Virus record (IMG/VR): IMGVR_UViG_3300033146_003395
Coordinates: 17,736 to 81,735 of that record
Origin: a virus
DNA: 64,000 nucleotides
Strand: one strand, 5' to 3'
Both the position numbers and the translations under genes were made by a program. Under the pieces are notes generated by a model that was given only the letters and a program-made list of their open reading frames with translations, had not been told where the DNA came from and did not search any database. Below, one piece after another: positions 91 to 46,604 of the stretch; the stretch's first letter is position 1; each line of letters starts with the position of its first letter.

Positions 91-372
91 ATGAGCAAAA
101 AAAGTAATATACGATTTATCATTAAAATTGCTAAATATAATACAAATAATTGGCAAATTAATAAAGTTATGACAAAATATTATATACGTAAAAGATATGT
201 TGATAAGTATTTTAGAGAAAACTGTTCATGTAAAATAAAATTAGTTGAGTTTTCTACAGGTATAGAAGACCGCGATTTTAATAATTTAATTGAGATTGCT
301 TTTGATGAATATAATAAAGGGTCAGATTTAAGTAAGTATATCGAGGAAAATTATCCTGAGTGGTTAATTTAA
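91..372 (+). CDS. hypothetical protein, PEYFV-tag family (ends YPEWLI)
   Basis: AAGGA RBS; C-terminal tag variant. Confidence 0.7.
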   Translation: MSKKSNIRFIIKIAKYNTNNWQINKVMTKYYIRKRYVDKYFRENCSCKIKLVEFSTGIEDRDFNNLIEIAFDEYNKGSDLSKYIEENYPEWLI

Positions 373-391
373 CCACCCAGGAAAAAGGCAT

Positions 392-420
392 AAAAAAAGC
401 CCTTCTAATAAAAGAAGAGC
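392..420 (-). terminator. rho-independent terminator after major capsid gene
   Basis: Minus strand GCTCTTCT-TTTATT-AGAAGGGC followed by T7, about 30 nt after gp23 stop. Confidence 0.8.
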
Positions 421-451
421 TTAAGATTTAAGTTAAAACTTAATCCGAAGA

Positions 452-1897
452 TTAAGCTAAAACAGTGTTACTAAAGTCTACACCAATCATTGAAGCATAA
501 GGAGATTTCTCACCCATTTGTGCAGCAGAATCCTGCCATGGGTTGGTAGTGATCCCATATCTCGTCATTGCGATTAACGCTGGTTGACCAGTAGAAACGT
601 GAGTTACTTTTTGAATTTGAACTGGAGTATATGGAGCATAAACACCAATTGAATCTTGATTAGAACCTTTGTAAACAACAGTCGCATATTCAGAAGTAGC
701 GAAGTTATCAACGATTACTGAAAATTTGTTATCAAATCTACCAACAACACCACCATTAGCGATTTGAGGGTTAACTGTAGAGTCTACATTAGATGCAGTA
801 AATCCACCAATTTGCTCTAACATTGTAACAACTTTTGGAGATACAAGTAATTTATTACCAGCACCACGACGGTTTAATCTACCAATTTCACGACTCATGT
901 CAGAAAGTTTAGCAGCAAACATACGATATTTTTCAATTTCCCATCTACCATCTTGAACACCAGAACCATCATTGATTTTGAATTCAGAAGCTTCAACAGA
1001 TGCGTTAGTGTTAACAAAGTCAACTACTTCACGGTCAGTTTGTGCTTTAATTTCGTAACCCATAAGACTCATAAGTTCTTGGTCTGCAAGAACACCATGC
1101 ATAGCTTTAAGATCTTGGTACATTTCAATTGTATATTCAGCACGTAATTTACGAGTTCTAGCTTCGATTTGTTTACGTTCAACAGCGATACCAACTTCAT
1201 TCATTTCATTTCCAACAGTACCACGGATTTCACCATTAGCAGTTGTATAAGAACCAGAATATTGAGGTAATAGACCTAACCATGTAGCTTCGCTTGAGAA
1301 AGTTCTAACAGCAACAACACCGTCACCTGAACCAGATTGAGTAATAGCTTCACCATTTTGAATGAAAGCATCAACACCAGCTAATTCAACAAGTACACGA
1401 CCTGCAAAAGTATCAGCACCAGCAATAGAAGCATTTGGAGATTGCGCTTTACCAGGTTTTTCACCTTGACGAGTAAACTCAGTAGGTTCAACATAAACAA
1501 CAGTACCAACAGCACCAGAAGTTCCACCAGTTAAAGTATCACCAATTACAGGTGCAACAGTACCGTCTAAATCAACGATTTGAGCTTTAACATTTGGATT
1601 AATAGGATTAGCTTGGTTACCAACAAAACGATTAGTTAAGTTATAGATAAAACCAGTTGGTCCAGACATTGGCTGTACACCTAGTAATTCATTAGCAATA
1701 AGTGCTGGATAAATTCTACGTAACATAGGCATTAAGAATGGAGTAAATTGAGCAACATCAGAAGCTATAGTTCCCTCTGCAATCATTTGTTCAGTTTCAC
1801 GTTTTGTATTAGCCATAACAGCTGCAAGAGTACCTTTATCTAGTTCAGATAATGGTGCATATTTAGTGCTTTCTAAAAGCGCTTTAAATTCAGACAT
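452..1897 (-). CDS. gp23: T4-like major capsid protein
   Basis: GVQPMSGPTG, ARTRKLRAEYTIEMYQDLKAMHG, YAPYTP and MTRYG motifs; downstream of scaffold and protease. Confidence 0.97.
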   Translation of the reverse strand: MSEFKALLESTKYAPLSELDKGTLAAVMANTKRETEQMIAEGTIASDVAQFTPFLMPMLRRIYPALIANELLGVQPMSGPTGFIYNLTNRFVGNQANPINPNVKAQIVDLDGTVAPVIGDTLTGGTSGAVGTVVYVEPTEFTRQGEKPGKAQSPNASIAGADTFAGRVLVELAGVDAFIQNGEAITQSGSGDGVVAVRTFSSEATWLGLLPQYSGSYTTANGEIRGTVGNEMNEVGIAVERKQIEARTRKLRAEYTIEMYQDLKAMHGVLADQELMSLMGYEIKAQTDREVVDFVNTNASVEASEFKINDGSGVQDGRWEIEKYRMFAAKLSDMSREIGRLNRRGAGNKLLVSPKVVTMLEQIGGFTASNVDSTVNPQIANGGVVGRFDNKFSVIVDNFATSEYATVVYKGSNQDSIGVYAPYTPVQIQKVTHVSTGQPALIAMTRYGITTNPWQDSAAQMGEKSPYASMIGVDFSNTVLA

Positions 1898-1955
1898 TTA
1901 AGTCTCCTTATTTTTTAAAAATTTTTATATACTTACCTTTTACGGCAAGCGTTAC

Positions 1956-2007
1956 CAATATAAGCTGTCCCAATGACATTTCAGCTATTTCATCTCTACT
2001 TATATTA
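1956..2007 (-). ncRNA. putative structured 5' leader of gp23 (copy 1 of 2)
   Basis: Stem UAAUAUAAGU/GCUUAUAUUG enclosing AGAGAUGAAAUAGCUGAAA and hairpin UGUC/GACA; same architecture upstream of gp22. Confidence 0.6.
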
Positions 2008-2039
2008 GCTAGTAATGATATTTAATATCGTTACTGTTT

Positions 2040-2047
2040 TATTTATA
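2040..2047 (-). promoter_or_regulatory. T4-type late promoter TATAAATA for gp23
   Basis: Exact gp55-type consensus; context aaacTATAAATAaaacag shared with the gp22 promoter. Confidence 0.8.
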
Positions 2048-2067
2048 GTTTGTGTAATCCTTAGGGA

Positions 2068-2894: not shown

Positions 2895-2903
2895 CTTCTG
2901 TTT

Positions 2904-8315: not shown

Positions 8316-9189
8316 AAATCAACCACAAGTAGTTAATCAAAAACAACGTTCTCGTAAAGTTGATAGTGAAGAAAAGCTAGTTGATTACATAAGAACTATG
8401 TTAGGCGAACCAATGATACAAGTAGATGTTTCAGATAACCAAATTCTATTAAATATTGATGAGACAATCAGAAAGTTCAGTGACTTCGCTTTCGGTGGGG
8501 AAGAAACAATAGCATTTGTATATGAAGGGCAAGAAGATGTACAAGATTATAGATTAGACTCAAGAGTCCAAGCTATATTATCAGTATCATGGGCTAATAG
8601 TTTAGGTACTATTAATTATGGAAATGGTGCTGGCGGTGTAAACTTAGGTCCAGGTTGGGGAACAATCGGAATCGGATATGTGCCACATGTTGATTCAATG
8701 GGTAATGTTTCGTCTTTAGAAGGTGGAATGGCTTCAGGTTCTTGTTCAACAGAAGTTTCTGGTGCTGCTGGTGGTGTTGGTAGAGGCTCAAGAATGGATA
8801 GTATGAGTAATGCTTACGCTTCTTTGGCTCAAAGAGATACAATGCAAGCATTATTTGGTAGAGGTGTTAATTTTGAATTCAATAGTAATACAAAAATACT
8901 TCGTGTATTTGAACCAATTGCTGGACCATTTATGATAGAAGCATCTGTGGAATATCAACCAAACCCAGAATATGATGAGATATATACCCATGATTTTATT
9001 AAAAGATATTCTGTAGCATTAACAAGAAGATTATGGTCAACCATTACTGGTAAGTATGATTCTGCTCTTGTTGGAGGAGCAACTATAAATTATGATAAGA
9101 TGCAATCGGAAGCCGAAGCAGAACTTGATAAATTAGATGATGAATTATTAACTAAATGGGCACCAGCGTTAGGAATTTTCAGTGGTTGA
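8308..9189 (+). CDS. gp13: neck protein
   Basis: LVDYIRTMLGEPMIQVDV N-terminus; KY...LVGGATINY C-terminal motif. Confidence 0.85.
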   Translation: MDRNQPQVVNQKQRSRKVDSEEKLVDYIRTMLGEPMIQVDVSDNQILLNIDETIRKFSDFAFGGEETIAFVYEGQEDVQDYRLDSRVQAILSVSWANSLGTINYGNGAGGVNLGPGWGTIGIGYVPHVDSMGNVSSLEGGMASGSCSTEVSGAAGGVGRGSRMDSMSNAYASLAQRDTMQALFGRGVNFEFNSNTKILRVFEPIAGPFMIEASVEYQPNPEYDEIYTHDFIKRYSVALTRRLWSTITGKYDSALVGGATINYDKMQSEAEAELDKLDDELLTKWAPALGIFSG

Positions 9190-9975
9190 TTTTGTAAATA
9201 ATTCTTCTAAAGAAATTGATGAATTTGCTTTTTTATTATAATTTTCTTCCCAGGGTATCATTTCCAAATTATGAATATTACCAATATATATTGGTAATAT
9301 TCCATTATTATATCCCTGCAATATACTAAATTTATGATCTAGATGATATTTTCCGTTTACACCAGCCATACCTCTTTTATCTATATTATTTAAGCTTGAT
9401 ATATTCATAGAATTTGTTATTCTATATACTTCTCGCTTATATAATTTATATAACGATAAATTTTCTAAAGTAACCCAATGATTTAATTTTTCTCTTGTCT
9501 CTCTGGTCTTTATCATTGCTTTATTTCTAACTTCTGGTATTTTACTAATATTATTTACGCCATACTTTATTAAACAAGTATTTTTATATTTTTCGATATT
9601 ATTATAATTTTCATCCCCATACCTGTTTAATTTTGTCATTTTAATTTTGTCTACATTACAATAATTTTCATCACCATACCTGCTTAATTTTGTCATTTTA
9701 ATCTGTTCGTTTGATTTTTTTATTTTATCTTTATCATTTTCCCTACATCTAGCACAACAAAATATATTATATCCGTTTTTGAATGATTTGAATTTGACAA
9801 TATTATAATTACATTTCTTACATTTAGGAGGTGATACTAAATTATTATTGAAAGCAAAATAATATTCTTGTTTAGAATTACACCAAGAATACTTAATAGG
9901 TACGGTTATTCTTTTGGACCTATTACTATTTATTTTTCCAGAGGGGCCTATTAACCATTTTATTAGTTTTTTCAT
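9169..9975 (-). CDS. HNH-like homing endonuclease
   Basis: CKKC/CCARC, tandem KMTKLxRYGDENY repeats, YHLDHKFS..NLEMIPWEENYNK. Confidence 0.75.
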   Translation of the reverse strand: MKKLIKWLIGPSGKINSNRSKRITVPIKYSWCNSKQEYYFAFNNNLVSPPKCKKCNYNIVKFKSFKNGYNIFCCARCRENDKDKIKKSNEQIKMTKLSRYGDENYCNVDKIKMTKLNRYGDENYNNIEKYKNTCLIKYGVNNISKIPEVRNKAMIKTRETREKLNHWVTLENLSLYKLYKREVYRITNSMNISSLNNIDKRGMAGVNGKYHLDHKFSILQGYNNGILPIYIGNIHNLEMIPWEENYNKKANSSISLEELFTKSTTENS

Positions 9976-12188: not shown

Positions 12189-12602
12189 ATGGATGATTAT
12201 AAAGATACTATGACTGAATTTGAATTGTTAACTGAAGTGCAAAAGAACTATAAAAGTTTTCTTGATATTGATAAAGCCTTAGCTATTTTTGAACTTGAGA
12301 ACGGCTATAGACCTGATATTATTATAGAAGACCCAAATGATTTTGAAAATGGTTTAGTTGTTCAAGAAACAATTGATAAAATTAATGAAATTAATGGTAA
12401 TGATTTTTGTACAGTAGAAGCAATGGTTTATATGAAAAAACTGGAAAAACTGCAAGAAAGTGGTGAATGTAATATGATCGCTGGTGATGTGAGAGCACGT
12501 ATACAAAGTTATTTATTAGTCGATTATATTGAGGCATCGGTTATTCACCATGCTTATATTGAACATTATTCTGAACTATATCGCCCAGAGACTACAATAT
12601 GA
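12189..12602 (+). CDS. hypothetical protein (weak tag RPETTI)
   Basis: RBS after early promoter. Confidence 0.7.
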   Translation: MDDYKDTMTEFELLTEVQKNYKSFLDIDKALAIFELENGYRPDIIIEDPNDFENGLVVQETIDKINEINGNDFCTVEAMVYMKKLEKLQESGECNMIAGDVRARIQSYLLVDYIEASVIHHAYIEHYSELYRPETTI

Positions 12603-12847
12603 TTTTTGAATTTACAAATTTACAAACATACAGGGTAGAAAATAATTTATATGAATTATTAATTATTCCGCCAAATCATAATATCGTTGCTATGATGAGT
12701 AAAAATGAATTTACAATTACCGTAAGTGTTAATAATTTTAATTACTTGGGAGTTTTCCCTGATGCACAACGAGCACAAGAAAATTTTAAAAGATTATCTA
12801 TAGCTTTATGTTATAATGAAGAAGACCACCCAGAAAGATTTGTATGA
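12599..12847 (+). CDS. PEYFV-tag family protein (HPERFV)
   Basis: ATGA overlaps at both ends. Confidence 0.7.
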   Translation: MIFEFTNLQTYRVENNLYELLIIPPNHNIVAMMSKNEFTITVSVNNFNYLGVFPDAQRAQENFKRLSIALCYNEEDHPERFV

Positions 12848-13014
12848 TAATTGATGAAATGAAATTCCTTACTTTTTTACAAGGATTAACTGAACAACAA
12901 TTAAAAACGGCAATTAATTTAGTTAAAAGAGATTTGTATGTATTTAATAATGTACAAAGTGACATAGAAAAAATGGAAATAATTGCAGAATTTTTTCCGG
13001 AGTATTTGGTTTAA
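12844..13014 (+). CDS. PEYFV-tag family protein, 56 aa (FPEYLV), not in ORF track
   Basis: MIIDEMKFL...AEFFPEYLV; ATGA overlap. Confidence 0.7.
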   Translation: MIIDEMKFLTFLQGLTEQQLKTAINLVKRDLYVFNNVQSDIEKMEIIAEFFPEYLV

Positions 13015-13058
13015 TATAAATTTAATATTAAGATGATATAATAAGTAAAAGGATAAGA

Positions 13059-14933
13059 ATGTCATTAAAGAAATTACAACCCGAAACAATTTATGAAGAA
13101 ACCCAACGTGAGGCTATTGTAAACAGACCGCACAATCTTGCTGGTTCAGTGAAGAGAATGAAAAAAGAGCGTTTTACTATTTCAAAAGACGAGATTAAAT
13201 TACAAGAAACAAATACAATCCCAGCATTACTTAAACTGTTTATGGAAGCATTAGATAATCCTATCGATGTTGCTATCAAAGGTGGTTGTAATCTTATTCA
13301 AGTTAATGTAGATGCTAAATCTATTAGAATTCGTGATAATGGTTATGGTATTTCATCAGCGATAGGAGCAAATGGTGAATATGTTTTATATAAAGCAATG
13401 TGTAAATATAACACATCTGCAAATTATGCTAAAGATGTAAAAGGTCAAGGGCAAAAAGGTGTAAATGGTATTGGTATTAAACTTTGTACGACACTAAGTT
13501 CTTACTTTAAAGTTATTTCAGATGATGGAGTAAAACAAGTAACTGTTATTGCAAAAGATAATAACTTCGTTCACGAAGTTGATGAAGCAAAAACAACAGG
13601 TCAAACTGGAGTTGAAATTAAATTCAAACCAGATTTTAACTTATTTGATACTAATGAAATTGATGAAGAGCATTTAGATAGAATGTATGAATATACATTA
13701 ATCCAAGCATTGACATATCCTGATATTACTTTTAAATTCAATAATAGAGTTATTAAATATACACCAAAGAAATTTCTAGATTTATTTAAAACTGATTATA
13801 TTTCTGATAATCAAGATGACTATTTTATTAGTATCATGCCAAATGCAATGGATGATTTTAGACAAGTATCATTTATTAATGGGCTAGAGACATACAAGGG
13901 TGGTTCTCATATCGATTTTGTTATGGATAAAATCGTTGCTGGAATTAGAACTAAACTTATTAGAAAGCACAAAGGTATTAAACCAGGTGATATTAGGAAT
14001 AAGTTACAGTTAGTTCTAATCGGGAAGGGTATGAAAAATATTGACTGGGAAGGTCAAACTAAATCTGAAATGTCAACACCTAATTCTATATTAGCCGATT
14101 ATTTTAAGAATACAGATTTTGATAAGTTCATTGCTCGTATTTTAAAGAACCCAGATATTATCGACCCAATTACTGAGATTTTTAAACTTAAAGAAGAAGC
14201 TAAGAAAAACTTAGAGCTTAAAAAGTTAGATAGAAAAGGTAAAAAGAAACCTAAATCAGAAAAATTTATGCCTCCAATTGGAGCATGGAAAAATTGTTTT
14301 GTTTGTGAGGGAGACTCTGCAGCAAACTCTGTTTCTAAAATTTTAGGTAGACAAGGTAATGGATTTTATGCAATGTTTGGTGTTCCACCAAACGCTTATG
14401 ATATGGCAATGAAAGATATTATTAAATCTAAAAAAATGTTAGACTTAAAAGACATTCTAGGTTTAAAATTTTCTGAAACTGTTCAAAATGAAATTAATTT
14501 TGATAATATTGTTATCACAACCGATTTCGATTTACCTGGACATTTTATTACTGGTCAACTTATTGGACTATTATATAAATTTGGTAAGAATTTATTTGAA
14601 GAAGGTAGAGTACGTAGATTTATTACTCCTCTTTTAATAGCTACAGATAAAAAGGAGAAGATTGTAGAATGGTTTTATAGTTTCGATGATTATAAAGAAT
14701 TTGAAAAGAAAAATAAATCTAAAAATTATAATTATGACTATAAAAAAGGGTTAGGTAGTTTTGACCCAGAAGAACTAGAGGTAGTTATTGCAAAAGATGG
14801 CCTAGAAAATATGATGGAAATATTCACATTGGATAATATAGCACCTAAGACAATAGATAATTGGCTAGGCGGGGATTCAACACCAAGAAAAGAATATTTG
14901 GCAGATTATAAGTTTGATATTATGAGTATGTAG
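13059..14933 (+). CDS. gp39: DNA topoisomerase II large subunit (ATPase plus TOPRIM, gp39/gp60 fused)
   Basis: EALDN, DNGYGI, GVNGIGIKL, EGDSA, DFDLPGHFI, YKKGLGS. Confidence 0.95.
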   Translation: MSLKKLQPETIYEETQREAIVNRPHNLAGSVKRMKKERFTISKDEIKLQETNTIPALLKLFMEALDNPIDVAIKGGCNLIQVNVDAKSIRIRDNGYGISSAIGANGEYVLYKAMCKYNTSANYAKDVKGQGQKGVNGIGIKLCTTLSSYFKVISDDGVKQVTVIAKDNNFVHEVDEAKTTGQTGVEIKFKPDFNLFDTNEIDEEHLDRMYEYTLIQALTYPDITFKFNNRVIKYTPKKFLDLFKTDYISDNQDDYFISIMPNAMDDFRQVSFINGLETYKGGSHIDFVMDKIVAGIRTKLIRKHKGIKPGDIRNKLQLVLIGKGMKNIDWEGQTKSEMSTPNSILADYFKNTDFDKFIARILKNPDIIDPITEIFKLKEEAKKNLELKKLDRKGKKKPKSEKFMPPIGAWKNCFVCEGDSAANSVSKILGRQGNGFYAMFGVPPNAYDMAMKDIIKSKKMLDLKDILGLKFSETVQNEINFDNIVITTDFDLPGHFITGQLIGLLYKFGKNLFEEGRVRRFITPLLIATDKKEKIVEWFYSFDDYKEFEKKNKSKNYNYDYKKGLGSFDPEELEVVIAKDGLENMMEIFTLDNIAPKTIDNWLGGDSTPRKEYLADYKFDIMSM

Positions 14934-29231: not shown

Positions 29232-29264
29232 AGTTATTATAGTATAATAGTACAAGGAGTTAAT

Positions 29265-29426: not shown

Positions 29427-29435
29427 GGAAAAAGA

Positions 29436-29887: not shown

Positions 29888-30087
29888 TGGAATTAAATAT
29901 TGTTTATATTGAAGACCACGATGAAGAAGACCAAGAGGCGAAATTTGTTTGTCCTCAATGTCACGGCATCGTAGAGTATCAAACATTTGAGAGAAAATCA
30001 AGTAATCCAATTTATGATTGGAATTGCGGAAGTTGTTTCAGTGCTGTACCAGTAGAAGAATTACACCTAAAATTGAAGGAGAAATAG
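29887..30087 (+). CDS. small Zn-ribbon protein
   Basis: CPQC...CGSC. Confidence 0.65.
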   Translation: MELNIVYIEDHDEEDQEAKFVCPQCHGIVEYQTFERKSSNPIYDWNCGSCFSAVPVEELHLKLKEK

Positions 30088-30329
30088 TGAAAGAACAATA
30101 TCAAGAAACGTGGCAAAGAAAATGGGGATTTAGTAAACTAGAATTTCACCCACTATTACTAGCAGCAGTATTCGGATTTACTGGATTATTTCTTGGTAAA
30201 GTATATTTTGATATGGCTTTATTATTTTTATTCTACACTGTAGTGTATTTCATTATAGATGTTGTATTAATTGGTGCCAGAATATTCTGGGCAGGTTATA
30301 AAGAAATGAAAAAAGATACTGAGATTTAA
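30087..30329 (+). CDS. hypothetical membrane protein
   Basis: GTG start after AAGGAG; two TM segments. Confidence 0.6.
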   Translation: MKEQYQETWQRKWGFSKLEFHPLLLAAVFGFTGLFLGKVYFDMALLFLFYTVVYFIIDVVLIGARIFWAGYKEMKKDTEI

Positions 30330-30379
30330 TCTCGGTCTAATAATATTATAGTATAATAATATAAACAGGCAGGAATGAA

Positions 30380-31783: not shown

Positions 31784-31821
31784 TCCTCTGAATCCTCTAA
31801 TTCTTTTTAAAACTTAAGGTA

Positions 31822-31866
31822 TTTAAGCTCCGTTTAATGTAAAACATGGTATAATATAGTATATAA
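31822..31866 (+). promoter_or_regulatory. early promoter repeat 6
   Basis: Same consensus. Confidence 0.8.
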
Positions 31867-31884
31867 AGAAAAGAAGGATAAATT

Positions 31885-32220
31885 ATGGAAGCTAAAATAT
31901 TACATTTTAACGATACAATCCGTAGAGATATAAACGGAGCTGGAAGTAGATTAGAACTTAAATCATTAGCCTTTGAGGGTTATTTAAACTTAGGTTATAA
32001 TACAGTTGCTAGAGTCCTGGTATCTGGTAATACTGATGAGATCTTAAGAAATTCATTTAAACTTACAAATTCATTCGATACTTTCTGGGGAGATAATGCA
32101 GATGTAACTTGTTATAATCCTAAATGTCGTTCAACTTCAGTTGGTGATTTAATCCAGGTAGGAAATGAAATTCATATTGTTGCATCAGCAGGATTTGAAT
32201 ATCTTTGTGAGGTAAAATAA
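31885..32220 (+). CDS. hypothetical protein (RSTSVGD motif, possibly YodL-like)
   Basis: RBS after promoter; motif only. Confidence 0.6.
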   Translation: MEAKILHFNDTIRRDINGAGSRLELKSLAFEGYLNLGYNTVARVLVSGNTDEILRNSFKLTNSFDTFWGDNADVTCYNPKCRSTSVGDLIQVGNEIHIVASAGFEYLCEVK

Positions 32221-32927
32221 TGCAAGAATTAGACACTTATAATAAATACGTTAAAGAGTACGCTCATTTATTTGATAGAGATTTTGAAGGTGGTTTAAGT
32301 AACCCTGAGATTATTGAGCTTGCTAATGCTGTTAAACAAGTAAATTATATGATTAATAATAAGGCAAAAAATCTTAGAAATATTTACGATTACCAAAAGA
32401 AATGTTTAACATTTCCAGAGTATGATGAAAGACATAGCAAAACATTTAAGGGATATGGTAGAATATATTTTGATAGATTTGTTGAAAATATTAATTCAGT
32501 AAATTTCTTTGAATTGCTTACATCAAAACGTAAGAAAAATTCTAATATCATTTTTAAAACAGATAATCATAGAGATGAATTTAATGCTAAAACATTTAGT
32601 GATATGTTTAATCAATTCAAATTAATTTGTGATGAGTATGATGATTATTTTAATAACCAAGAATTTTATATTAAGAGATTCTTAGATACTGGTGATTCTA
32701 CTAAAGATAAAGTAGTATCTTATGATAGACAATCACTTTATATTGGATATTTTGACGAGAGTGCAGCAGATATTTCTGGACTAGTTTATAATATTAACCA
32801 TGATAAGGATAGTGTTTTCGATTTTCATACAGTAGAATTTTCAGTTCCTTTAGAAAAAATAGATAACAAATATTATCAAGGTCTAAATGATTACATGAAA
32901 AACTTTTTTCCAGAGTATATAGTATGA
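32220..32927 (+). CDS. PEYFV-tag family protein (FPEYIV)
   Basis: Tag. Confidence 0.75.
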   Translation: MQELDTYNKYVKEYAHLFDRDFEGGLSNPEIIELANAVKQVNYMINNKAKNLRNIYDYQKKCLTFPEYDERHSKTFKGYGRIYFDRFVENINSVNFFELLTSKRKKNSNIIFKTDNHRDEFNAKTFSDMFNQFKLICDEYDDYFNNQEFYIKRFLDTGDSTKDKVVSYDRQSLYIGYFDESAADISGLVYNINHDKDSVFDFHTVEFSVPLEKIDNKYYQGLNDYMKNFFPEYIV

Positions 32928-33187
32928 TTAAAAACCCAACAGAACAACAATTGCAAGCTTTAGATTTTAATGTTATTGTATATATTACAGTCCGTAAAGA
33001 AAAGATTAAGTGTTTCTCTGGAAATTCATTACCAGATAATCTAAGAGGTACAACTTTTAAAGCATCTCGCACTGGCTCACATACAATACAACCTAATAAA
33101 CCATTAGGTGGATATTGGCATGACATTGTAGCTGAGCAGATAGAAGAGATTTATACTAAGGATGAAGATACTGAGTATTTTGTATGA
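32924..33187 (+). CDS. PEYFV-tag family protein (DTEYFV)
   Basis: ATGA overlap; tag. Confidence 0.7.
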   Translation: MIKNPTEQQLQALDFNVIVYITVRKEKIKCFSGNSLPDNLRGTTFKASRTGSHTIQPNKPLGGYWHDIVAEQIEEIYTKDEDTEYFV

Positions 33188-33540
33188 TTAAAGAATGGGA
33201 CCAATATCACCAGTATTTTTATACCCCTACAGATATTAATAATATCAAACCTGGTGATGTAATTTACAGAATCAAAATAAAAATGATGGACTATATTGAA
33301 GAGACTTATAGAGTCCTAGAAATTGATGAAAATGGTTTACATTCAAGAGCTATAATCTGTAATATGTTTGATGGTCCAGTGGAGAAAGTGGCCTTAGGCA
33401 TACTTCCAAGGTTTTATATAACGTACGAACAGATAGTTGAACATAATGTAAATCTAGCAAGGGATGGGTTTCCGTGGGATAGACCATACAATTTAATAGT
33501 AAAAGGGGACCAGTTAGAATTCCCTGAATATTATATATAA
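33184..33540 (+). CDS. PEYFV-tag family protein (FPEYYI)
   Basis: ATGA overlap; tag. Confidence 0.75.
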   Translation: MIKEWDQYHQYFYTPTDINNIKPGDVIYRIKIKMMDYIEETYRVLEIDENGLHSRAIICNMFDGPVEKVALGILPRFYITYEQIVEHNVNLARDGFPWDRPYNLIVKGDQLEFPEYYI

Positions 33541-33548: not shown

Positions 33549-33797
33549 ATGAAAACAGTAGATGTATTACTAGAAGACCAAGATTTTATGGATAAGTATT
33601 GTACAGCATCAATTAGTGCACATTTTTGGAAATCAGACCATAGAATAGTAATAAACAAACACCTAGTGGGAAAAGGTTTATTAAACTGTAGAATGATAAG
33701 TGTAAGACTTTTAGAAACACTAGATGGATATCAATTTGATTGGAAATTCGTTAAGCAAGAAATTAACCAGTTAGAATTCCCTGAATATTACGTATAA
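33549..33797 (+). CDS. PEYFV-tag family protein (FPEYYV)
   Basis: RBS; tag. Confidence 0.75.
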   Translation: MKTVDVLLEDQDFMDKYCTASISAHFWKSDHRIVINKHLVGKGLLNCRMISVRLLETLDGYQFDWKFVKQEINQLEFPEYYV

Positions 33798-33814
33798 ATA
33801 ACAAAAGGATTAAA

Positions 33815-34259: not shown

Positions 34260-34571
34260 ATGGAAATAAGAATACAATATAGAACAAGTACGCATGAGGG
34301 TGATGACTTTTTTGATAGCACAGCCGAAGCGATTGAGTATCTAATGGGATTAGAGGCAGAAATAGAAGAAGAAATTGCAGCAGATGAAGAAGAATATATG
34401 ACAGAATCTGAAGAAGAAGAATTTGCGTGCTTACCAGATAGAGTAAGTGTTTCTAAAGTACAAAGAAGTTATAACAAAACTACTATAGAAGTTGAACTAG
34501 CAGAATATAAAGAAAACGGTTTTGAAATTACGTATGAAGGTAAAACGGGTTATACACTGGAGAGAAAATGA
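34260..34571 (+). CDS. hypothetical very acidic protein
   Basis: RBS; Glu-rich. Confidence 0.65.
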   Translation: MEIRIQYRTSTHEGDDFFDSTAEAIEYLMGLEAEIEEEIAADEEEYMTESEEEEFACLPDRVSVSKVQRSYNKTTIEVELAEYKENGFEITYEGKTGYTLERK

Positions 34572-34939
34572 TTGTTAAAATCAGTACATACAAAAACCGA
34601 AAAGGCTTAGCGGAGCTTTTAATACCTGAACTTCCGTTTTATGTGCTGGATAAAGAGGAAGATGAGCCTAGTCATTATTTTAAAGCCGTTTCAATGTCTA
34701 AGAAATATTACTGGGATACACCTTATAAATTAGATAAGAATGGCCAGAATTTTCATAGCGGAAACTCTAAAAAACTTGCAGTCATGGCTGGACAAGAAAT
34801 TTACAAGACTGTAGAAGAAGTCCAGAATGCTTTAATTAAAAGAAAAGTAGAAACAGTAAAAGAATTGTTTCCAGAAATTTTATATCTTTATAATGATTAT
34901 ACAAAATTCATGGAAGAATACCCAGAGCATTTTCTATAA
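34568..34939 (+). CDS. PEYFV-tag family protein (YPEHFL)
   Basis: ATGA overlap; tag. Confidence 0.7.
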   Translation: MIVKISTYKNRKGLAELLIPELPFYVLDKEEDEPSHYFKAVSMSKKYYWDTPYKLDKNGQNFHSGNSKKLAVMAGQEIYKTVEEVQNALIKRKVETVKELFPEILYLYNDYTKFMEEYPEHFL

Positions 34940-34958
34940 ATAAACTAAAAGGAACACT

Positions 34959-36796: not shown

Positions 36797-37021
36797 ATGG
36801 ATATTAAAAACAACCGAGTTTATCGCTTAGAAATAGGTGATAATGAAACATTGGTATATACAGTTAAACAAGTAGCAGAAACCTTATGGGATTGTCAGAT
36901 ACTTGAAACTGGCAATAATATGTATCTGAATAAAGGTGAAATAGGTCGATTTGATATTGGGTGGTTCGCTGAAGAATTAGGTACTAAAGCAGAATATGAG
37001 GAGTATTTCGTATTTTTATAA
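36797..37021 (+). CDS. PEYFV-tag family protein (EEYFV + FL)
   Basis: Tag with 2-aa extension at endonuclease junction. Confidence 0.65.
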   Translation: MDIKNNRVYRLEIGDNETLVYTVKQVAETLWDCQILETGNNMYLNKGEIGRFDIGWFAEELGTKAEYEEYFVFL

Positions 37022-37040
37022 ATATATTATAAGGATAAAA

Positions 37041-37931
37041 ATGCCTAAGAAGAAAACGCAAGAAGATTATTTATTAGAATTAATTAATAAGTCAATATAT
37101 ATAATTCCATTAGAGACATATATTAACTTTAATACAAAGATTTTACATAAATGTATATGCGGAAATGAATGGGAAGTTATGCCTAAGTTAATATTAAGAG
37201 GTGTTTTATGTGGGTGTAAAGGTACGGCTAAACCAAATACTAATAATTGGTATTTAAATAAGCTTATAAAAAACAAAATAACTGTTATTCCATTAGAGGC
37301 GTATATTAACTCTAATACAAAGATTTTACATAAATGTATATGTGGAAATAAGTGGTTTATTACCCCAAACGATATAATAAAAGGGGTAAAGTGTGGGTGT
37401 ATTAATGGTTTATCCCAAATTAAATCAAACAAATGGTATCTAGAAAAATTAGAAGAAAAAGATATAAAAGTAATACCATTAGAACCTTATATTAAATCAA
37501 GGACTAAAATTTTACATAAGTGTTACTGTAATAATGAATGGTTAGGTAGACCAATGGATGTGCTAAAAGGAATGGGCTGTGGATGTAAACGTAACTATTC
37601 TTTAAGAGGTGTAGAATTTTATAGAGGTAAGAAAACAATCTTATATTATATAAAAATTAAAGGATTGAATAACGAAGATTTATATAAAATCGGTGTTACT
37701 TTATATAAAGAATCAATAGAAAAAAGTTTAAAGAAAAGATTCTATAGACAAGAATATGAGATTATACAGACTGATATTTTCAAAGATGGTAGCGAAGCGT
37801 TCACATTAGAACAACAGATATTAGAATTTAACAGAGAATACAGATATTTAGGCGAGAAAGTTCTTAAATCTGGAAATACTGAATTATTTATTAAGGATAT
37901 AACGTATGAAAAAAGTACCCAAAAAAACTGA
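37041..37931 (+). CDS. putative homing endonuclease, paralog of 19057..19920
   Basis: Same Zn-ribbon repeats and C-terminal domain; TATAAATA at 37017; AAGGA RBS before ATG 37041. Confidence 0.7.
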   Translation: MPKKKTQEDYLLELINKSIYIIPLETYINFNTKILHKCICGNEWEVMPKLILRGVLCGCKGTAKPNTNNWYLNKLIKNKITVIPLEAYINSNTKILHKCICGNKWFITPNDIIKGVKCGCINGLSQIKSNKWYLEKLEEKDIKVIPLEPYIKSRTKILHKCYCNNEWLGRPMDVLKGMGCGCKRNYSLRGVEFYRGKKTILYYIKIKGLNNEDLYKIGVTLYKESIEKSLKKRFYRQEYEIIQTDIFKDGSEAFTLEQQILEFNREYRYLGEKVLKSGNTELFIKDITYEKSTQKN

Positions 37932-38142
37932 TTTTGTTCTAGCTGCCAATAAAGAAGTATATCTTTATTGGGGTGGTGTAGCAGGCGGAGAAGCAATTAT
38001 CGTAAAAGATAGAAATCAGTTCACTACACAAATGGCTAATAAATATATTGTAGCTACTTGCACTGTTCAAGATGTACAAAACCACGGCTATGATTCAGCT
38101 AATGAATATTTCTCAGAACAATATCCCGAGATGTTTGTATGA
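37906..38142 (+). CDS. PEYFV-tag family protein (YPEMFV)
   Basis: Tag. Confidence 0.75.
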   Translation: MKKVPKKTDFVLAANKEVYLYWGGVAGGEAIIVKDRNQFTTQMANKYIVATCTVQDVQNHGYDSANEYFSEQYPEMFV

Positions 38143-38474
38143 AAATAAATTCAGAAATTAACACAGGTAAATTATTTGTCTTAAAATCTAAAGAATATTG
38201 CACCAATAATAATTATCTTTTTGATGAAGACAATGATTGTTTCCTTAACAAAGAAGAACATCTATTTTGGTTTAATAGTACAATAGATGAAATTTGTCAA
38301 GTAGGATTTATTGATGTTAATTGTTATGGGAAAATCGTTGAGGTTTTTAACGTAGTTACCGGAGACCAAATAAATTTGTGTTACCGTGTAAATAATGCAG
38401 CTGATTATTCAATAATTGATGATTGGATGGGAAAATATGTTGACCCAGAAAAAGAACCGGAGTATTTTGTATGA
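38139..38474 (+). CDS. PEYFV-tag family protein (EPEYFV)
   Basis: ATGA overlap; tag. Confidence 0.75.
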   Translation: MKINSEINTGKLFVLKSKEYCTNNNYLFDEDNDCFLNKEEHLFWFNSTIDEICQVGFIDVNCYGKIVEVFNVVTGDQINLCYRVNNAADYSIIDDWMGKYVDPEKEPEYFV

Positions 38475-38686
38475 CAAATTTTCAAAAGAAAATAATTGGT
38501 GCAATTTTTTATAAAAGACCTGCAAAAAGAGGAAACTTATTAGTAAGTTATATGGCTGAGCATGAGAAATATTATGAATGTCTCTATGCTACAGGTGCGA
38601 CTTATCTTATAGAAAAAGATGACGTGATATGGGTTGGAGAATCTGAAGAACAATTTAAAGATGAGCACCCGGAGTATTTTGTATGA
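38471..38686 (+). CDS. PEYFV-tag family protein (HPEYFV), tandem paralog of next gene
   Basis: IFYKR..RG...EKYYEC...IEKD.V.WVG.S.EQF. Confidence 0.75.
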   Translation: MTNFQKKIIGAIFYKRPAKRGNLLVSYMAEHEKYYECLYATGATYLIEKDDVIWVGESEEQFKDEHPEYFV

Positions 38687-38895
38687 AAACAGATTTTATG
38701 ACAATAGGGTATATCTTTTATAAGAGGACAAATGATAGAGGCACAAGGTTATCAAAATATATTAATGAATTTGAAAAACATTATGAATGTGCTTTTATAA
38801 CTGGTGGAAGTTATATGATTGAAAAAGATACTGTTCTATGGGTTGGAAAATCTGTAGAACAATTCGAAGAAGAAAATGCAGAGTACCTAATATGA
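38683..38895 (+). CDS. PEYFV-tag family protein (NAEYLI)
   Basis: Paralog of previous gene. Confidence 0.75.
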   Translation: MKTDFMTIGYIFYKRTNDRGTRLSKYINEFEKHYECAFITGGSYMIEKDTVLWVGKSVEQFEEENAEYLI

Positions 38896-39128
38896 AATTA
38901 ACTAGAATGAAAAAAGTTGAAGATATTTACGAAAAAGATTATTGTCTTGTTAACGATGAGTTATTTTGTGTTACTAGTGTTTATTCAGGATTTAATAACA
39001 CTATAATTATGGCTTATAATGAAGAATCTCATAAATATCAGCCATCGCTTTCTGAGGTTCAATATAACTTTGGACCAGGAACTAGTTTTGAAGATATTAA
39101 AAGAGTATTTGCGGAGTATTTTGTATGA
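38892..39128 (+). CDS. PEYFV-tag family protein (FAEYFV)
   Basis: Start moved to ATGA overlap. Confidence 0.7.
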   Translation: MKLTRMKKVEDIYEKDYCLVNDELFCVTSVYSGFNNTIIMAYNEESHKYQPSLSEVQYNFGPGTSFEDIKRVFAEYFV

Positions 39129-39370
39129 AAACAGATAAAGGTCAAAATTTCTATGCCTTAGAGTACAATGATACTGAGTGGATGACACAAAACGGTTTGG
39201 TATTAGAAATTAAAGATATGGACAAAATGCATGTGTTTAATAGTGTAAGGTTACTGCAAAGACGTAACAAAATTTTAGAACAAAGTGGGGAAGAACTCTA
39301 CAAAATTCCTAGGTTATTAATAGCTTCTTACGAAAAATTTGAAGATGAGATGCCGGAGTATTTTGTATGA
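39125..39370 (+). CDS. PEYFV-tag family protein (MPEYFV)
   Basis: ATGA overlap; tag. Confidence 0.75.
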   Translation: MKTDKGQNFYALEYNDTEWMTQNGLVLEIKDMDKMHVFNSVRLLQRRNKILEQSGEELYKIPRLLIASYEKFEDEMPEYFV

Positions 39371-39630
39371 TTAAATTTGGGGTAGGTGATACTGTAATCT
39401 ACAAATATAGGGATACATTAATCCTTGCGAAGATCAAAGAAGAAAAAGAATGGCAAGATTCTTTATGTGCATACGATACAGAAGTTATTTGTGGTAATCA
39501 AGATATTTATGGGGAACATTGGGAAATAGCTAAAGTTATTGAGAGGGGTAATGTCGAAGTATTAGCTGTTGTAAACACTGAATTTGATTATCATACTTGG
39601 ATTCAAGACAACCCAGAGTATTTTATATAA
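39367..39630 (+). CDS. PEYFV-tag family protein (NPEYFI)
   Basis: ATGA overlap; tag. Confidence 0.75.
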   Translation: MIKFGVGDTVIYKYRDTLILAKIKEEKEWQDSLCAYDTEVICGNQDIYGEHWEIAKVIERGNVEVLAVVNTEFDYHTWIQDNPEYFI

Positions 39631-39661
39631 ATATACCAAATATATAATACAAAGGTATAAT

Positions 39662-43387: not shown

Positions 43388-44653
43388 TTACTTTTCCTTT
43401 ATTCTTTGAATATCTAGACTCGAACAATGTAGTGACCCAGCAAATATATGCGAATGTCTTAATTGCACTGGAATAACTTCAAATCCATTTTCTTCTAAAA
43501 CTTCAATTGTTCCTAAAGCATCTTCCTGAACTATTACAGTTTTTTTATCAATGCTTAATATATTAACTGACATTCCTTCATCACTAGCTAGTCTTAAATT
43601 TTTATTAGTTAAATATTTAATTTCTCTTTCTGGTGTATTCTTTGGATATAAGTAAATATATCCATTATTAGGATGGAACTTACTTGGTAATTTCTTCCAT
43701 ACTTCTGGATAATTAGGATTAACCAAAAAAGTATTCTCATTTAAACTGACCAATACACCATCAATGTGAGAATCACATAATTTTACTATATGAAATTCTT
43801 TATTAGGAAAGAAACTTTTTAACCATAAAAATCCAAGATATTGATTATAATTACTTATGTTAACTATAATATCATCATTAAGCCTTAAAAAATTAGCCCC
43901 GTCAATTGCAGCTTCATAACTACTAGGAATATTATTAAAATCTCTATTCTTTTCCCAATCTTCAATATCAACACTACTCTCGGTTAATATCGTTAAGGGG
44001 GCTTTTATCCATTGGGTTTTAAAATTATTAGTAACCTCTTTAAATATATTATACATAGCTAAATTTTCAAAAGCTCTATTTCTGACAATTACCGGGGTTT
44101 CTATTAATTTATCATCAATGACAATTGTTATATCTCTTACATTATTTGCTGGTGATAATTCAGATTTAAAAGTGGTTGTTTTAAAAGGTATAACTTGTTT
44201 TAGAATATCAGGTCTATAAACAGTTATTCCCAATTCTTGTAATATAGTAGCTAAGTTATTTAAATCTTCAATGCGTTCTTTTAATATTATATCATTAATT
44301 ATATACTCATCACCTAAATCATTATATTCATATACAGATTGACCAAGATTTGACTTATAAAAATTTTTAAATGTAAAATCTATTACACGTTTAGATAATT
44401 CTAGTTCATTGCCAATTATAACTGCTTTTAATGTATCATAACTATTAGAACTATTAACTTCTATTTTTTTCTTTTTACAATTATCAAAATGCCATCTTTT
44501 AATTGCTCTAGGGTCTCCTTCTAAAAAACAATGTGGGCATTTAACTTTTTCTGTAAATCCTCGAGGTTTACCAATTTTACTATCTGATATTTTTTTTCTA
44601 GTTTCTTTGGTTAAGGTCTTTCCTTTATTGCCATTTGAAATCTTTTGTTTCAT
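43388..44653 (-). CDS. amidinotransferase with N-terminal endonuclease-derived segment
   Basis: NVRD, DGAN, HIDG, VNILSID, GSLHC of the Gly/inosamine-P amidinotransferase fold; first ~62 aa NUMOD3 plus CPHC..KRWHFDNCK. Confidence 0.85.
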   Translation of the reverse strand: MKQKISNGNKGKTLTKETRKKISDSKIGKPRGFTEKVKCPHCFLEGDPRAIKRWHFDNCKKKKIEVNSSNSYDTLKAVIIGNELELSKRVIDFTFKNFYKSNLGQSVYEYNDLGDEYIINDIILKERIEDLNNLATILQELGITVYRPDILKQVIPFKTTTFKSELSPANNVRDITIVIDDKLIETPVIVRNRAFENLAMYNIFKEVTNNFKTQWIKAPLTILTESSVDIEDWEKNRDFNNIPSSYEAAIDGANFLRLNDDIIVNISNYNQYLGFLWLKSFFPNKEFHIVKLCDSHIDGVLVSLNENTFLVNPNYPEVWKKLPSKFHPNNGYIYLYPKNTPEREIKYLTNKNLRLASDEGMSVNILSIDKKTVIVQEDALGTIEVLEENGFEVIPVQLRHSHIFAGSLHCSSLDIQRIKEK

Positions 44654-44672
44654 TATAATTCCTAATTTTGAA

Positions 44673-44763
44673 TTATAAGAGGACTTTCCACGGTCAGATT
44701 AAAAGTGTAGATGGACCGTGGAAGAGCATCTACACTTTTAATATCTCTTATAACTTATTTATA
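44673..44763 (-). ncRNA. endonuclease-associated structured element copy 3 with late promoter
   Basis: Loop CUC-UUCCACGGUC complementary to GACCGUGGAA; 16-bp P2. Confidence 0.75.
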
Positions 44764-44816
44764 TTATAACGGATTAATATTAAAATAATCTTAAATTGCC
44801 TGAAATTTAGTCCAAA

Positions 44817-44861
44817 TTTAAGCTTGTTTTAATGTTAAACATGGTATAATATAGTATATAA
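44817..44861 (+). promoter_or_regulatory. early promoter repeat 8
   Basis: Same consensus. Confidence 0.8.
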
Positions 44862-44871
44862 AGGATTTAAT

Positions 44872-45270
44872 ATGAATATTTTAGATAAAATCAGAGAATA
44901 CGTAGATACAGATGTTATTATTGTTTTAGACAATGAGCAAATTACAGAAATTGATGAAGATAGCAAAGAGATTCTTTGTGTAGAAGGTGGAGTATATTCA
45001 TTTGAAAGTATTGAAGACCGTTATGCTGAAGATATAATGTTTTATAAATCTTATGAATTAGAAATGACTTATGATATTCGTGATTTTATCAAAGACCTTA
45101 AAAGATCTGAAAAAGACTTAGATAAATCTAAAGCTAAAAAAATGTTAGTATTAGAAATTAATGAAAGATATTTATTAAATCCTACTGAATTAGAAGAGTG
45201 TTATAACTTTGAATTTTTTGAAAATTTAAATGCAATTACAACACATAAATTTACACGAATGAAAGACTAA
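44872..45270 (+). CDS. hypothetical protein
   Basis: RBS after promoter. Confidence 0.7.
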   Translation: MNILDKIREYVDTDVIIVLDNEQITEIDEDSKEILCVEGGVYSFESIEDRYAEDIMFYKSYELEMTYDIRDFIKDLKRSEKDLDKSKAKKMLVLEINERYLLNPTELEECYNFEFFENLNAITTHKFTRMKD

Positions 45271-45584
45271 TGAAATTATTTACATACGGTACACTTACTG
45301 GAGACCATTATACAATGGGTAATGCTACTTTTCTCGGTAAGTCAACAACAGTAAAAGAATATCATAAAGGTCAAAATAATTGGTATCCATATCTGCTAGA
45401 AAAATCACAGTTGAGCACTGCAATTATTAGTGGTAACTTGTGGGAAATACCTGAAGAAGATTTCGGTGAAATTGATAGATATGAAGGTGCACCGGATTTA
45501 TTTGATAAGAAACTTATTGAAGTCAAAAATGGAGATATTGTAGTACAGGCTTATTGCTATTTTATAGACCCAAAGGAAATTTAA
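45270..45584 (+). CDS. gamma-glutamylcyclotransferase (AIG2-like) family protein
   Basis: LFTYGTL, YP.L, ISGNLWE, IDRYEG, AYCY. Confidence 0.8.
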   Translation: MKLFTYGTLTGDHYTMGNATFLGKSTTVKEYHKGQNNWYPYLLEKSQLSTAIISGNLWEIPEEDFGEIDRYEGAPDLFDKKLIEVKNGDIVVQAYCYFIDPKEI

Positions 45585-46058
45585 ATGAATAATATGATAG
45601 AGTATACCGGAAGATATTTTGTATTGTATAATAATACTGGAGATATGTTCAGAAAAGAAAATCCTGTAGATTTCGGACCGGCTTTCAGTAACAATAGTAA
45701 TAATCGGGAATATTCATGTTATAAACCTCACAGAGTACAGGGAGATTTTTATCACAATGATAAAGAAATTCGCTTATATGACTCAAGAAGGTTACATCGT
45801 TATATGAAAAAAGAGGAAGTACAGGAACTTTATCCTGAGATGTTTACACCTTATGATGATGACAAGATAGATGATAAGTATTATCGATTACGATTAAATG
45901 GTCATGGCATGATAGAGTATATTGTAACTGAAGTTTTTAATAAAAAGATATGTATTAAGAGACCATTAAGAGCACAGACTATAACACTTAGCGAAAAAAG
46001 CGAAGCTTGGATGAAAGAATCTGTAGCACGTGAAAAATATCCGGAGATGTTTATATGA
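45585..46058 (+). CDS. PEYFV-tag family protein with two tags (internal YPEMFT, terminal YPEMFI)
   Basis: Motif occurs twice. Confidence 0.7.
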   Translation: MNNMIEYTGRYFVLYNNTGDMFRKENPVDFGPAFSNNSNNREYSCYKPHRVQGDFYHNDKEIRLYDSRRLHRYMKKEEVQELYPEMFTPYDDDKIDDKYYRLRLNGHGMIEYIVTEVFNKKICIKRPLRAQTITLSEKSEAWMKESVAREKYPEMFI

Positions 46059-46293
46059 GTTTAAAAATTAAAAAAAAAGTGGACCTCTTTATAATAAGTT
46101 AAGAGCATCTAAAAAACAAATTCAGAATTATCAAATAGATATAGTATATCTGAAAAAAGATTTTGACCCTTTTTCTGGTCTGTTAGATAGGATAAAACAC
46201 GAGGAACAAATTGCTGAAATTGAAGAGAAAATAGATGAAGAAAAGAAGTATTATGACAAATTAATATTTGACCACCCAGAGTATTTTATATGA
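46055..46293 (+). pseudogene. PEYFV-tag family gene frameshifted in an A9 tract (ends HPEYFI)
   Basis: ATGA overlaps at both ends; frame restored by one extra A at 46070-46078. Confidence 0.65.
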
Positions 46294-46604
46294 TGTTAGC
46301 ACCTATAATAGTATTATGTGAAACTTATGAAGATTTATATGAATGTGAACAACAGACTGGTAAAATATATTTTACCAAAGATATTTATGCTGGTAATTTT
46401 ACATTTCCTGTTGTGTATTTTCGTTATATAGATAAAGATAGTCCAGCTTTAAGTGATTACGATATATATGAATTTAGTGTTATGCGGTATGCCAATAGAG
46501 AACAGTTCTTAGAAGAATATTATTATAACACAATGAAAAGATCCAACTTAACCCCAGTAAAACCTACAGAAATCAGAGAAGAATTTCCAGAGTATTTCGT
46601 ATAA
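46290..46604 (+). CDS. PEYFV-tag family protein (FPEYFV)
   Basis: ATGA overlap; last gene of array. Confidence 0.75.
   Translation: MMLAPIIVLCETYEDLYECEQQTGKIYFTKDIYAGNFTFPVVYFRYIDKDSPALSDYDIYEFSVMRYANREQFLEEYYYNTMKRSNLTPVKPTEIREEFPEYFV

Follow-up and report, generated by a model that had tools for sequence, protein, structure and literature searches.

The 64,000 nucleotides analysed here (the window) are bases 17736–81735 of G000, an 81.7-kb contig of an uncultured T4-like phage (IMG/VR record IMGVR_UViG_3300033146_003395), and the window's plus strand encodes 40 small proteins, of 53–235 aa, that end in variants of a single peptide, P-E-Y-F-V, placed directly before the stop codon. We found that purifying selection acts on this C-terminal tag as a peptide, not as DNA, and that the tag occurs throughout a clade, cultured Vibrio phages among its members, and is not special to this phage. 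Our tentative explanation, held at somewhat less than even confidence, is that the tag serves as a portable C-terminal address label with a single reader, which would most plausibly be a machine of proteostasis or remodelling. The original prediction, that a common hub recognises a library of early effectors through this tag, is supported in part: peptide-level selection and portability are observed, and the common reader is what we infer.

The pattern P-E-x-x-[VILMF] directly before a stop codon occurs 36 times on the window's plus strand and never on its minus strand. One of the 36 (LPEISF, ending at 5053) lies inside a minus-strand gene and is spurious; adding near variants (NPQYIV, YAMYFI, DTEYFV, NAEYLI and FAEYFV) gives the 40 tagged open reading frames (ORFs). 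Over the whole contig, 36 called genes match the strict pattern where composition predicts 0.10 (binomial P ~1e-79), and 41 of the 105 plus-strand genes and none of the 49 minus-strand genes are tagged, which bears out the earlier estimate of about 40 small plus-strand ORFs. The core motif stands at the C-terminus 31 times and internally three times in plus-strand frames, and between 12 and 40 kb of the window the tag is found on 32 of 49 small (≤150 aa) plus-strand genes. With their tails trimmed, the 41 carriers of the contig fall into 40 BLASTP clusters, as expected if their bodies mostly lack other similarity; they are mostly acidic, and no transmembrane-like segment was seen among the tagged proteins. 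The tag is missing from the topoisomerase, ligase and helicase and from every structural gene, so that its claimed absence from structural, replication, minus-strand and membrane genes holds.

Relatives were fetched via the capsid protein and via DNA patterns, and six related records, G001–G006, were read whole. The tag was present in seven related phage records, these six and the cultured Vibrio phage phiKT1024 (OM249648.1); across the relatives the tagged share of genes is 11–27%. G001 (235 kb) has 56 carriers, on both strands and following gene orientation; there are 31 in G002, 14 in G003, 18 in G004 (39% GC), seven in G005 and nine in G006. In phiKT1024 about 87 carriers make up a quarter of the genes, all annotated 'hypothetical protein' within the 100 kb of annotation covered. 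T4, KVP40 and Campylobacter phage CP220 have no tag; the 'NSI' C-termini of CP220, considered as a tag-like signal, proved to be an artefact of a 97-bp tandem DNA repeat. Exact-pattern scans of IMG/VR returned mostly single chance matches, with several per record in clade members only. The motif had been said to lack a known description, and our literature search, outside which lay the genome papers of phiKT1024, pv27 and phiTY18, found no published description of the peptide.

Pooling the tails of 260 carriers from eight genomes, we found that information content climbs from about position −15, well beyond the 5–6 residues of the tag as first described; its C-terminal position stands, its shortness does not. 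The distal part reads E(−15), I/L(−13), E(−12), Φ(−10), K/R(−9), E/K(−8) and the tip Y/F/H(−6), P(−5), E(−4), Y/L(−3), F/L(−2), I/V(−1), giving a module of 12–15 residues, E-x-[I/L]-E-x-Φ-[K/R]-[E/D]-[E/K]-[F/Y/H]-P-E-Y-F-[V/I]-COOH, of which the positions upstream of the tip are conserved in residue class only. Hydrophobic residues are spaced as in an amphipathic helix closed by a proline-initiated turn, and AlphaFold drew this helix–turn in both carrier models made. The module is acidic (E/D at −15, −12, −8 and −4) and the carriers mostly net negative, which led us to reject a membrane-targeting C-terminal amphipathic helix of the basic–hydrophobic MinD/FtsA type. Most carriers finish in [Y/L/F][F/L][V/I] and, with the free carboxylate, have the non-polar terminus of a degron. 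One model (predicted local distance difference test, pLDDT, 68) gave only weak winged-helix-like matches in a fold search (Z ≤6.2), the other (pLDDT 54) was too poor for fold comparison, and the last 30 residues retrieved nothing usable from the ESM Atlas.

Codon choice separates the peptide from the DNA that encodes it. We compared 79 coupled tags, whose stop codon overlaps the next ATG, with 174 uncoupled tags, pooled across genomes. Coupled tags spell proline CCG in 40 of 70 cases and glutamate GAG in 70 of 75, whereas uncoupled tags use CCG in 4 of 160 cases and GAA:GAG at 89:32, both like background (Fisher P ~1e-21 for each contrast); the uncoupled tags of phiKT1024 have GAA:GAG at 42:8 against a background of 0.79:0.21. 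The entropy of the uncoupled proline codon is 0–0.43 bits at positions 1–2 and 1.55 bits at position 3, and in the last codon it rises from 0 at position 2 to 1.70 at position 3. Both TTR and CTN codons serve for leucine at −2 and −3, and the tag is retained across 27–39% GC with its codons shifted. When homologous tagged genes were compared in pairs for their codons, a 19-member leucine-rich-repeat (LRR) family dominated the result, which was uninformative. Because the uncoupled tags keep their residues with background codons, the peptide is what is selected, and Shine–Dalgarno and promoter signals are overlays; the protein-level selection first proposed was set against constraint on DNA alone, and synonymous sites in uncoupled tags are free.

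These overlays are nonetheless real. At ATGA junctions (GTATGA) the codons CCG-GAG supply a GGAG Shine–Dalgarno sequence 8 nt before the next ATG; this rare spelling is confined to ATGA-overlap junctions, where an 18-nt sequence, CCGGAGTATTT[CT]GTATGA, recurs. The Shine–Dalgarno sequence of the next gene thus forms a second coding layer inside the tag DNA. Elsewhere the last codons and stop (for example GTA-TAA-ATA) form TATAAATA, a T4-type late promoter, at 33793–33800, 34935–34942, 37017–37024 and 39626–39633, each 15–29 nt upstream of the next gene, which is untagged in all four cases; the gene upstream is tagged at 33793, 34935 and 39626 and ends EEYFVFL at 37017. The same 18 nt can therefore hold the tag, the next gene's Shine–Dalgarno sequence and its start codon, and sometimes a late promoter, which makes a clean example of multi-layer coding. 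The recurrent junctions, the tag ends that form TATAAATA and the many G002 tags that abut a conserved promoter cassette could suggest a purely DNA or RNA element (Shine–Dalgarno sequence with spacer, promoter, operator or recombination junction) with the peptide as by-product. As sole cause this is contradicted by the uncoupled tags, which keep the peptide with background codons, and we consider it very improbable: the tag also follows gene orientation on both strands of G001, is never found in another frame or at a distance from the end of an ORF, is retained over the whole GC range, and its upstream positions are conserved by residue class alone.

A second explanation places the function at the ribosome: the nascent chain at the stop codon would tune termination, recycling or re-initiation in early operons that are long and polycistronic, with no role in the mature protein. 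The tag does form the last residues before the stop, of the 263 tagged genes 74 overlap their downstream neighbour and 77 lie within 30 nt of it, and peptide selection with free synonymous sites fits this explanation too. Against it, 47 tagged genes lack any neighbour in the same direction within 100 nt: 29 of them face a convergent gene, and in 18 the gap exceeds 100 nt; the occurrence of the tag on genes without a coupled downstream gene, noted at the outset, is therefore confirmed. The amphipathic pattern reaching to −15 resembles a folded helix surface, and KVP40, a related phage that is also on Vibrio, is tagless. We regard the nascent-chain explanation as rather unlikely.

The tag's portability is evident from the diversity of its carriers. 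The 263 pooled carriers from eight genomes form 218 clusters, of which 195 are singletons, and span an LRR-like multi-copy family of 182–430 aa, an L7/L12 C-terminal-domain (CTD)-like architecture, a β-rich 85-aa protein (a low-confidence model) and proteins of 235–331 aa. The LRR-like family, with a variable number of ~20-aa repeats (…FxCSxNxLTSLEGxP…), has seven copies in G001 (for example 12845–13573) and at least eight in G002 (for example 538–1830), with further members at G003 32789–33463, G006 9087–9647 and phiKT1024 140797–141054; it could be a family of binder-plus-label adaptors. Carrier turnover is evidently very fast: homologues of only nine of the 41 carriers in G000 could be detected in G001, G002 or G003, yet G000 and G001 share 80% identity in their capsid proteins. 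Beside the tagged proteins stands a 110-aa window protein (18717–19049) that shares 37% identity with a G001 protein bearing the tag (…EKYPEYFV) and has a hydrophobic end (…IMLFSLTGVAIPII) in place of the tag.

The tip itself varies by genome, as PEYFV, PEYFI, PE[L/E]FI or PQYFI. The phiKT1024 form is [F/Y/H]-P-E-[L/E/Y]-[F/L]-I, and G002 and G006 use [F/Y]-P-Q-Y-F-I or F-P-Y-H-F-I and never P-E. In five families, position −4 is Q, F, H or Y in the G002 member and E in the members from other genomes; examples of orthologous tails are AEMPELFI/EAFPEVFI/KNYPFIFI, EKYPEYSI/RAYPQYFI and NNPERFI/YSEFFI/NHPQYFI. Judging from these tails, the dialect follows the genome, not the protein family.

The carriers share a strand with the replication genes, while TATAAATA late promoters precede the minus-strand structural genes; the 19 genes that stand immediately behind TATAAATA include no tagged one (chance ~0.003 at a tag frequency of 27%). 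Downstream of many carriers in G002, G005 and G006 there is a cassette that runs from a TTTAAG box (at about −30) through TATAAT and a leader to AAGGA and ATG. The G002 version (L026–L035; for example 1831–1885 and 12373–12430), yTTTAAGTyTTATTA-N3-TATAAT-ATATTATATAAAGAGAAAAGGATAGAAAGATG, is intergenic and lies directly after many tagged genes. The cassette looks like an early or middle promoter; its −30 box and −10 element resemble T4 middle promoters and mobile promoter cassettes. From strand and promoter context, we infer that the carriers are probably early or middle proteins.

In the explanation we prefer, an address label with one reader, the common partner would recognise the free hydrophobic tip together with the preceding helix and so treat all carriers as one class. 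Its likeliest kind would be an AAA+ unfoldase or protease, or a chaperone, of phage or host origin, and it would clear or process early proteins on schedule. The carriers are small, acidic and soluble accessory proteins that turn over fast, in a clade of T4-like phages.

Several results weigh against this explanation. In the better AlphaFold model the pre-tip helix looks part of a compact domain, and only the last 5–6 residues may therefore be free. With 30 residues trimmed, the carrier bodies show 58 weak BLASTP matches (1e-3<E<0.1) where about 12 are expected, several-fold above the marginal matches to untagged small proteins. Because of this excess, part of the carriers may be old diverged paralogues, a family of which the tail is merely the best-conserved piece, and genome-wide dialect shifts could then come from shared carrier descent within a lineage. 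Taken further, all carriers would form an ancient paralogous superfamily of tandemly duplicated small genes, with bodies now too diverged to recognise and the C-terminal helix as the most conserved structural or self-association element, with no external reader. The tandem arrays of similar-sized tagged genes, the few detectable paralogue clusters and the placement of the penultimate helix within a domain agree with that, as does the excess of body similarity, seen after trimming 12, 20 or 30 residues alike. We find a superfamily doubtful nevertheless: the tag occurs on clearly different architectures, singletons predominate among the carriers, and a structural element needs neither the exact terminus nor a concerted shift across unrelated families of one genome.

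Nor did we find a reader on comparing the clade-specific conserved proteins and the polymerase and gp55 tails. A phage clamp, first suggested as the hub, is weakened as a candidate: the clade DNA polymerase ends in [D/E][D/E](P)W (..ADEPW, ..EIDEW, ..LDDW), as does that of tagless CP220 (…LEEW), and clamp-type reading is unlikely because this tail differs from the tag (polymerase loci: G001 29896–33096, G002 28834–31854, phiKT1024 150095–151225, the last apparently split into two ORFs). The clade gp55-like protein ends in ..ITRAEEPK or similar. In T4, gp43 ends …SLDFLFG and gp55 …SLDFLYEAND, with SLDFL[F/Y] in common; with polymerase and gp55-like ends unlike the tag and replication proteins untagged, we consider a T4-type clamp-binding tail improbable. 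Three further candidates were dropped. The GroEL-like chaperonin of phiKT1024, annotated together with a GroES-like co-chaperonin (51689–53269 and 43478–43783), is without homologues in G001 and G002; this phage's trypsin-like protease is not conserved there either; and cleavage by a T4-type prohead protease (Φ-x-E↓) does not suit the Q of the G002 dialect or carriers that are not late genes.

Only five proteins are common to phiKT1024, G001 and G002 and without a BLASTP match in T4, KVP40 and CP220: a MoxR AAA+ ATPase (PF07728), a zincin-vWA protein, a 172-aa acidic/basic protein adjoining gp41 that could be assigned to no family, and two tagged families. The MoxR and zincin-vWA proteins, the only ones of the five with informative domains, suggest a specific case of the address label, in which the tail would dock on the pair as its reader and the carrier would be remodelled or its tail clipped. 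The zincin-vWA protein combines a DUF2201_N zincin with a vWA-like domain and conserves HExxH and the DxSxS metal-ion-dependent adhesion site (MIDAS); the pair is also present in G006, in G002 its genes flank one tagged gene, and precedents exist (PMC7159879 and PMC13036017). Also weighing against this explanation, adjacent MoxR/zincin-vWA genes occur in five cultured phages without C-terminal enrichment (N4-like YL2, Vibrio D515, rV5-like coliphage PDX, cyanophage S-TIM66 and Aeromonas 2L372D), whose summed C-terminal information is 0.23–0.64 bits, like T4, versus 0.8–2.5 in tag-bearing genomes; because these tagless phages carry it, the pair is at best necessary, not sufficient. MoxR homologues are found in 609 phage records, the association of pair and clade is a single phylogenetic event, and the pair was not seen in the 44%-complete G000 contig. 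On balance we think the pair an unlikely reader. Equally unlikely, in our judgement, is the fullest version of the address label: proteome-scale addressing of a ninth to a quarter of the genes by a single dedicated machine, which would clear, remodel or clip the entire class at set times, with label and reader co-evolving into lineage dialects and MoxR/zincin-vWA as the best current candidate.

If there is one reader, a single short peptide would decide what becomes of as many as a quarter of the proteins in a phage. The tagged proteins are mostly ORFans, the 'dark matter' of phage genomes, and the tag would then offer a handle to pull down, stabilise or mis-sort a whole class of host-takeover proteins, a portable element ready for phage engineering, and a sequence criterion by which early effectors could be picked out in phages known from metagenomes. 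These ideas are directly testable, as cultured Vibrio phages (phiKT1024, pv27, phiTY18 and Va1) bear the tag, on about 87 genes.

The tagged ORFs of the window, all on the plus strand, begin with the 3′ end of one that started upstream (1–71, ending NCPEFFV-TAA), followed by 91–372 (93 aa, NYPEWLI) and then the convergent capsid gene. At 12 kb stand 12189–12602 (137 aa, YRPETTI; NPQKCI in the G002 orthologue) and 12599–12847 (82 aa, DHPERFV), both ATGA-coupled, and 12844–13014 (56 aa, FFPEYLV). Next are 17166–17588 (140 aa), with the variant tag ANPQYIV and orthologues in G002, G005 and phiKT1024, 17858–18478 (206 aa, TSPEYFV), 18478–18708 (76 aa, EYPEYMV) and 20437–20691 (84 aa, or 134 aa if read from the first ATG at 20287; KFPENFI).

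A long array follows from 23 kb: 23199–23399 (66 aa, variant HYAMYFI), 23409–23660 (83 aa, EYPEYFV; downstream gap 65 nt), 23726–24046 (106 aa, MFPEYFV) and 24054–24311 (85 aa, KYPEYSI), whose Y-P-x-Y is kept in orthologues (AYPQYFI in G002). Then come the ATGA-coupled 24332–24736 (134 aa, TEPEYFV), and 24733–24939 (68 aa, EWPEYFV), with the junction CCGGAGTATTTCGTATGA; 24936–25166 (76 aa, NYPEYFV) and 25163–25402 (79 aa, DFPEYFV) have coupled junctions of the same kind. The array continues with 25399–25617 (72 aa, EHPEFFV; ATGA-coupled), 25614–25868 (84 aa, DCPEYFV), 25898–26170 (90 aa, EFPEYFV; ATGA-coupled) and 26167–26493 (108 aa, DNPEYYV; downstream gap 73 nt). The protein of 27253–27600 (115 aa, KYPEYFV) has an L7/L12-CTD-like motif and a tail kept in orthologues; beyond it are 27609–27941 (110 aa, ERPEYFV), 28228–28449 (73 aa, LFPEHLI) and 29265–29426 (53 aa, EYPEYFV).

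Further along, 32220–32927 (235 aa, FFPEYIV) has a G001 orthologue ending HYPQYLV and precedes 32924–33187 (87 aa, variant EDTEYFV), 33184–33540 (118 aa, EFPEYYI) and 33549–33797 (82 aa, EFPEYYV), whose GTA-TAA-ATA forms the late promoter of the next, untagged gene; the end and stop of 34568–34939 (123 aa, EYPEHFL) do likewise. Another run comprises 37906–38142 (78 aa, QYPEMFV; ATGA-coupled), 38139–38474 (111 aa, KEPEYFV; KDPEYFI in the G001 orthologue), 38471–38686 (71 aa, EHPEYFV) and 38683–38895 (70 aa, variant ENAEYLI), the latter two being the only detectable paralogue pair, then 38892–39128 (78 aa, variant VFAEYFV), 39125–39370 (81 aa, EMPEYFV; ATGA-coupled) and 39367–39630 (87 aa, DNPEYFI), where end and stop again form the late promoter.

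The last group holds 45585–46058 (157 aa, KYPEMFI; ATGA-coupled), 46055–46293 (DHPEYFI) and 46290–46604 (104 aa, EFPEYFV), followed by a convergent gene. Unlike the carriers first described, which were all listed as ORFs, one is interrupted by a frameshift: the tagged frame of 46055–46293 lacks an in-frame start, and the ATG at 46055, which is coupled to the preceding gene through ATGA, belongs to a different frame. The break lies inside an A9 run at 46070–46078 and reflects either a mistake in assembly or slippage during transcription or translation.

The source contig has 29% GC and a CheckV completeness of ~44%. The window contains genes for a gp23-type major capsid protein, portal, prohead protease, topoisomerase II, ATP-dependent ligase and helicases; upstream of it lie a gp45-type clamp (G000 1907–2596, phrog_223), a primase and exonucleases. 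One of these, a PD-(D/E)XK-type exonuclease (L304:11692–12480, phrog_69), ends …SEDDIPF, the canonical tip motif of the bacterial single-stranded DNA-binding protein C-terminus, which is missing from its orthologues in related phages. By capsid protein, the nearest cultured relatives are the Vibrio phages of the phiKT1024/pv27/Va1 group (45% identity) and Campylobacter phages (42%), and 7 kb of DNA had no blastn match among cultured phages. When words were sampled from 4 kb of the window, two sediment metagenome runs proved to contain 0.45 and 0.23 of them; among the public runs listed, no RNA run bore the stretch. On the minus strand at 46710–62984, one radical S-adenosylmethionine (SAM) gene was confirmed, the rest of the putative radical-SAM block coming from a first letters-only reading. 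We found no link between the window's radical-SAM genes and the tag: none is named in the 100 kb of phiKT1024 annotation covered, and CP220 is tagless. The contig ends, at window positions 63975–64000, in three tandem copies of AACCTTA (…TTAAACCTTAAACCTTAAACCTTAA), which may be a terminal repeat or an assembly edge.

Some known systems resemble the tag in part. The clamp-binding tails of T4 gp43, gp55 and gp33 are likewise a hydrophobic C-terminal peptide shared by unrelated phage proteins, there with the single hub gp45; they mark three replication and transcription proteins, whereas the tag marks dozens of ORFans and leaves replication proteins untagged. C-terminal degrons, such as the ssrA tag and the non-polar tails read by ClpXP, ClpAP, FtsH or Tsp, are also short terminal hydrophobic peptides with a free carboxylate that give unrelated proteins a common fate. 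Those known to us are added by transfer-messenger RNA or occur on single proteins, and we know of none encoded on a quarter of a genome; P-E-Y-F-V, moreover, does not match LAA-type motifs. The capsid-targeting sequence of T4 is again a short peptide shared by several unrelated phage proteins with one destination, but it is N-terminal, cleaved by the prohead protease and borne by late-expressed, packaged internal proteins, whereas the tag is C-terminal and no late-promoter-proximal gene carries it.

That the very end of a partner protein can be recognised by a MoxR ATPase is shown in PMC13036017, where the C-terminus of NorD docks on the hexamer of NorQ, a MoxR AAA+ protein. NorQ has one dedicated vWA partner where the tag would present many clients, and there is no sequence resemblance. 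The FxSxx-COOH-type peptide-processing modules tied to vWA–MoxR systems (Kaur, Burroughs, Iyer, Aravind 2020, PMC7159879) comprise one or a few precursors adjoining the peptidase in bacterial conflict islands, whereas here 11–27% of phage genes are tagged and scattered. The motif differs, the pair also occurs in tagless phages and, although the zincin-vWA gene is present in G001, G002, G006 and phiKT1024, most tagged genes lie far from it, so the adjacency of precursor and peptidase is not seen. The likenesses are that the carriers, too, are small, fast-diverging proteins conserved only in a short C-terminal peptide; that a zincin metallopeptidase and a MoxR/vWA pair are encoded in the same genomes as the tag; and that FxSxx-COOH modules pair their C-terminal peptides with radical-SAM/SPASM enzymes, which the window also contains.

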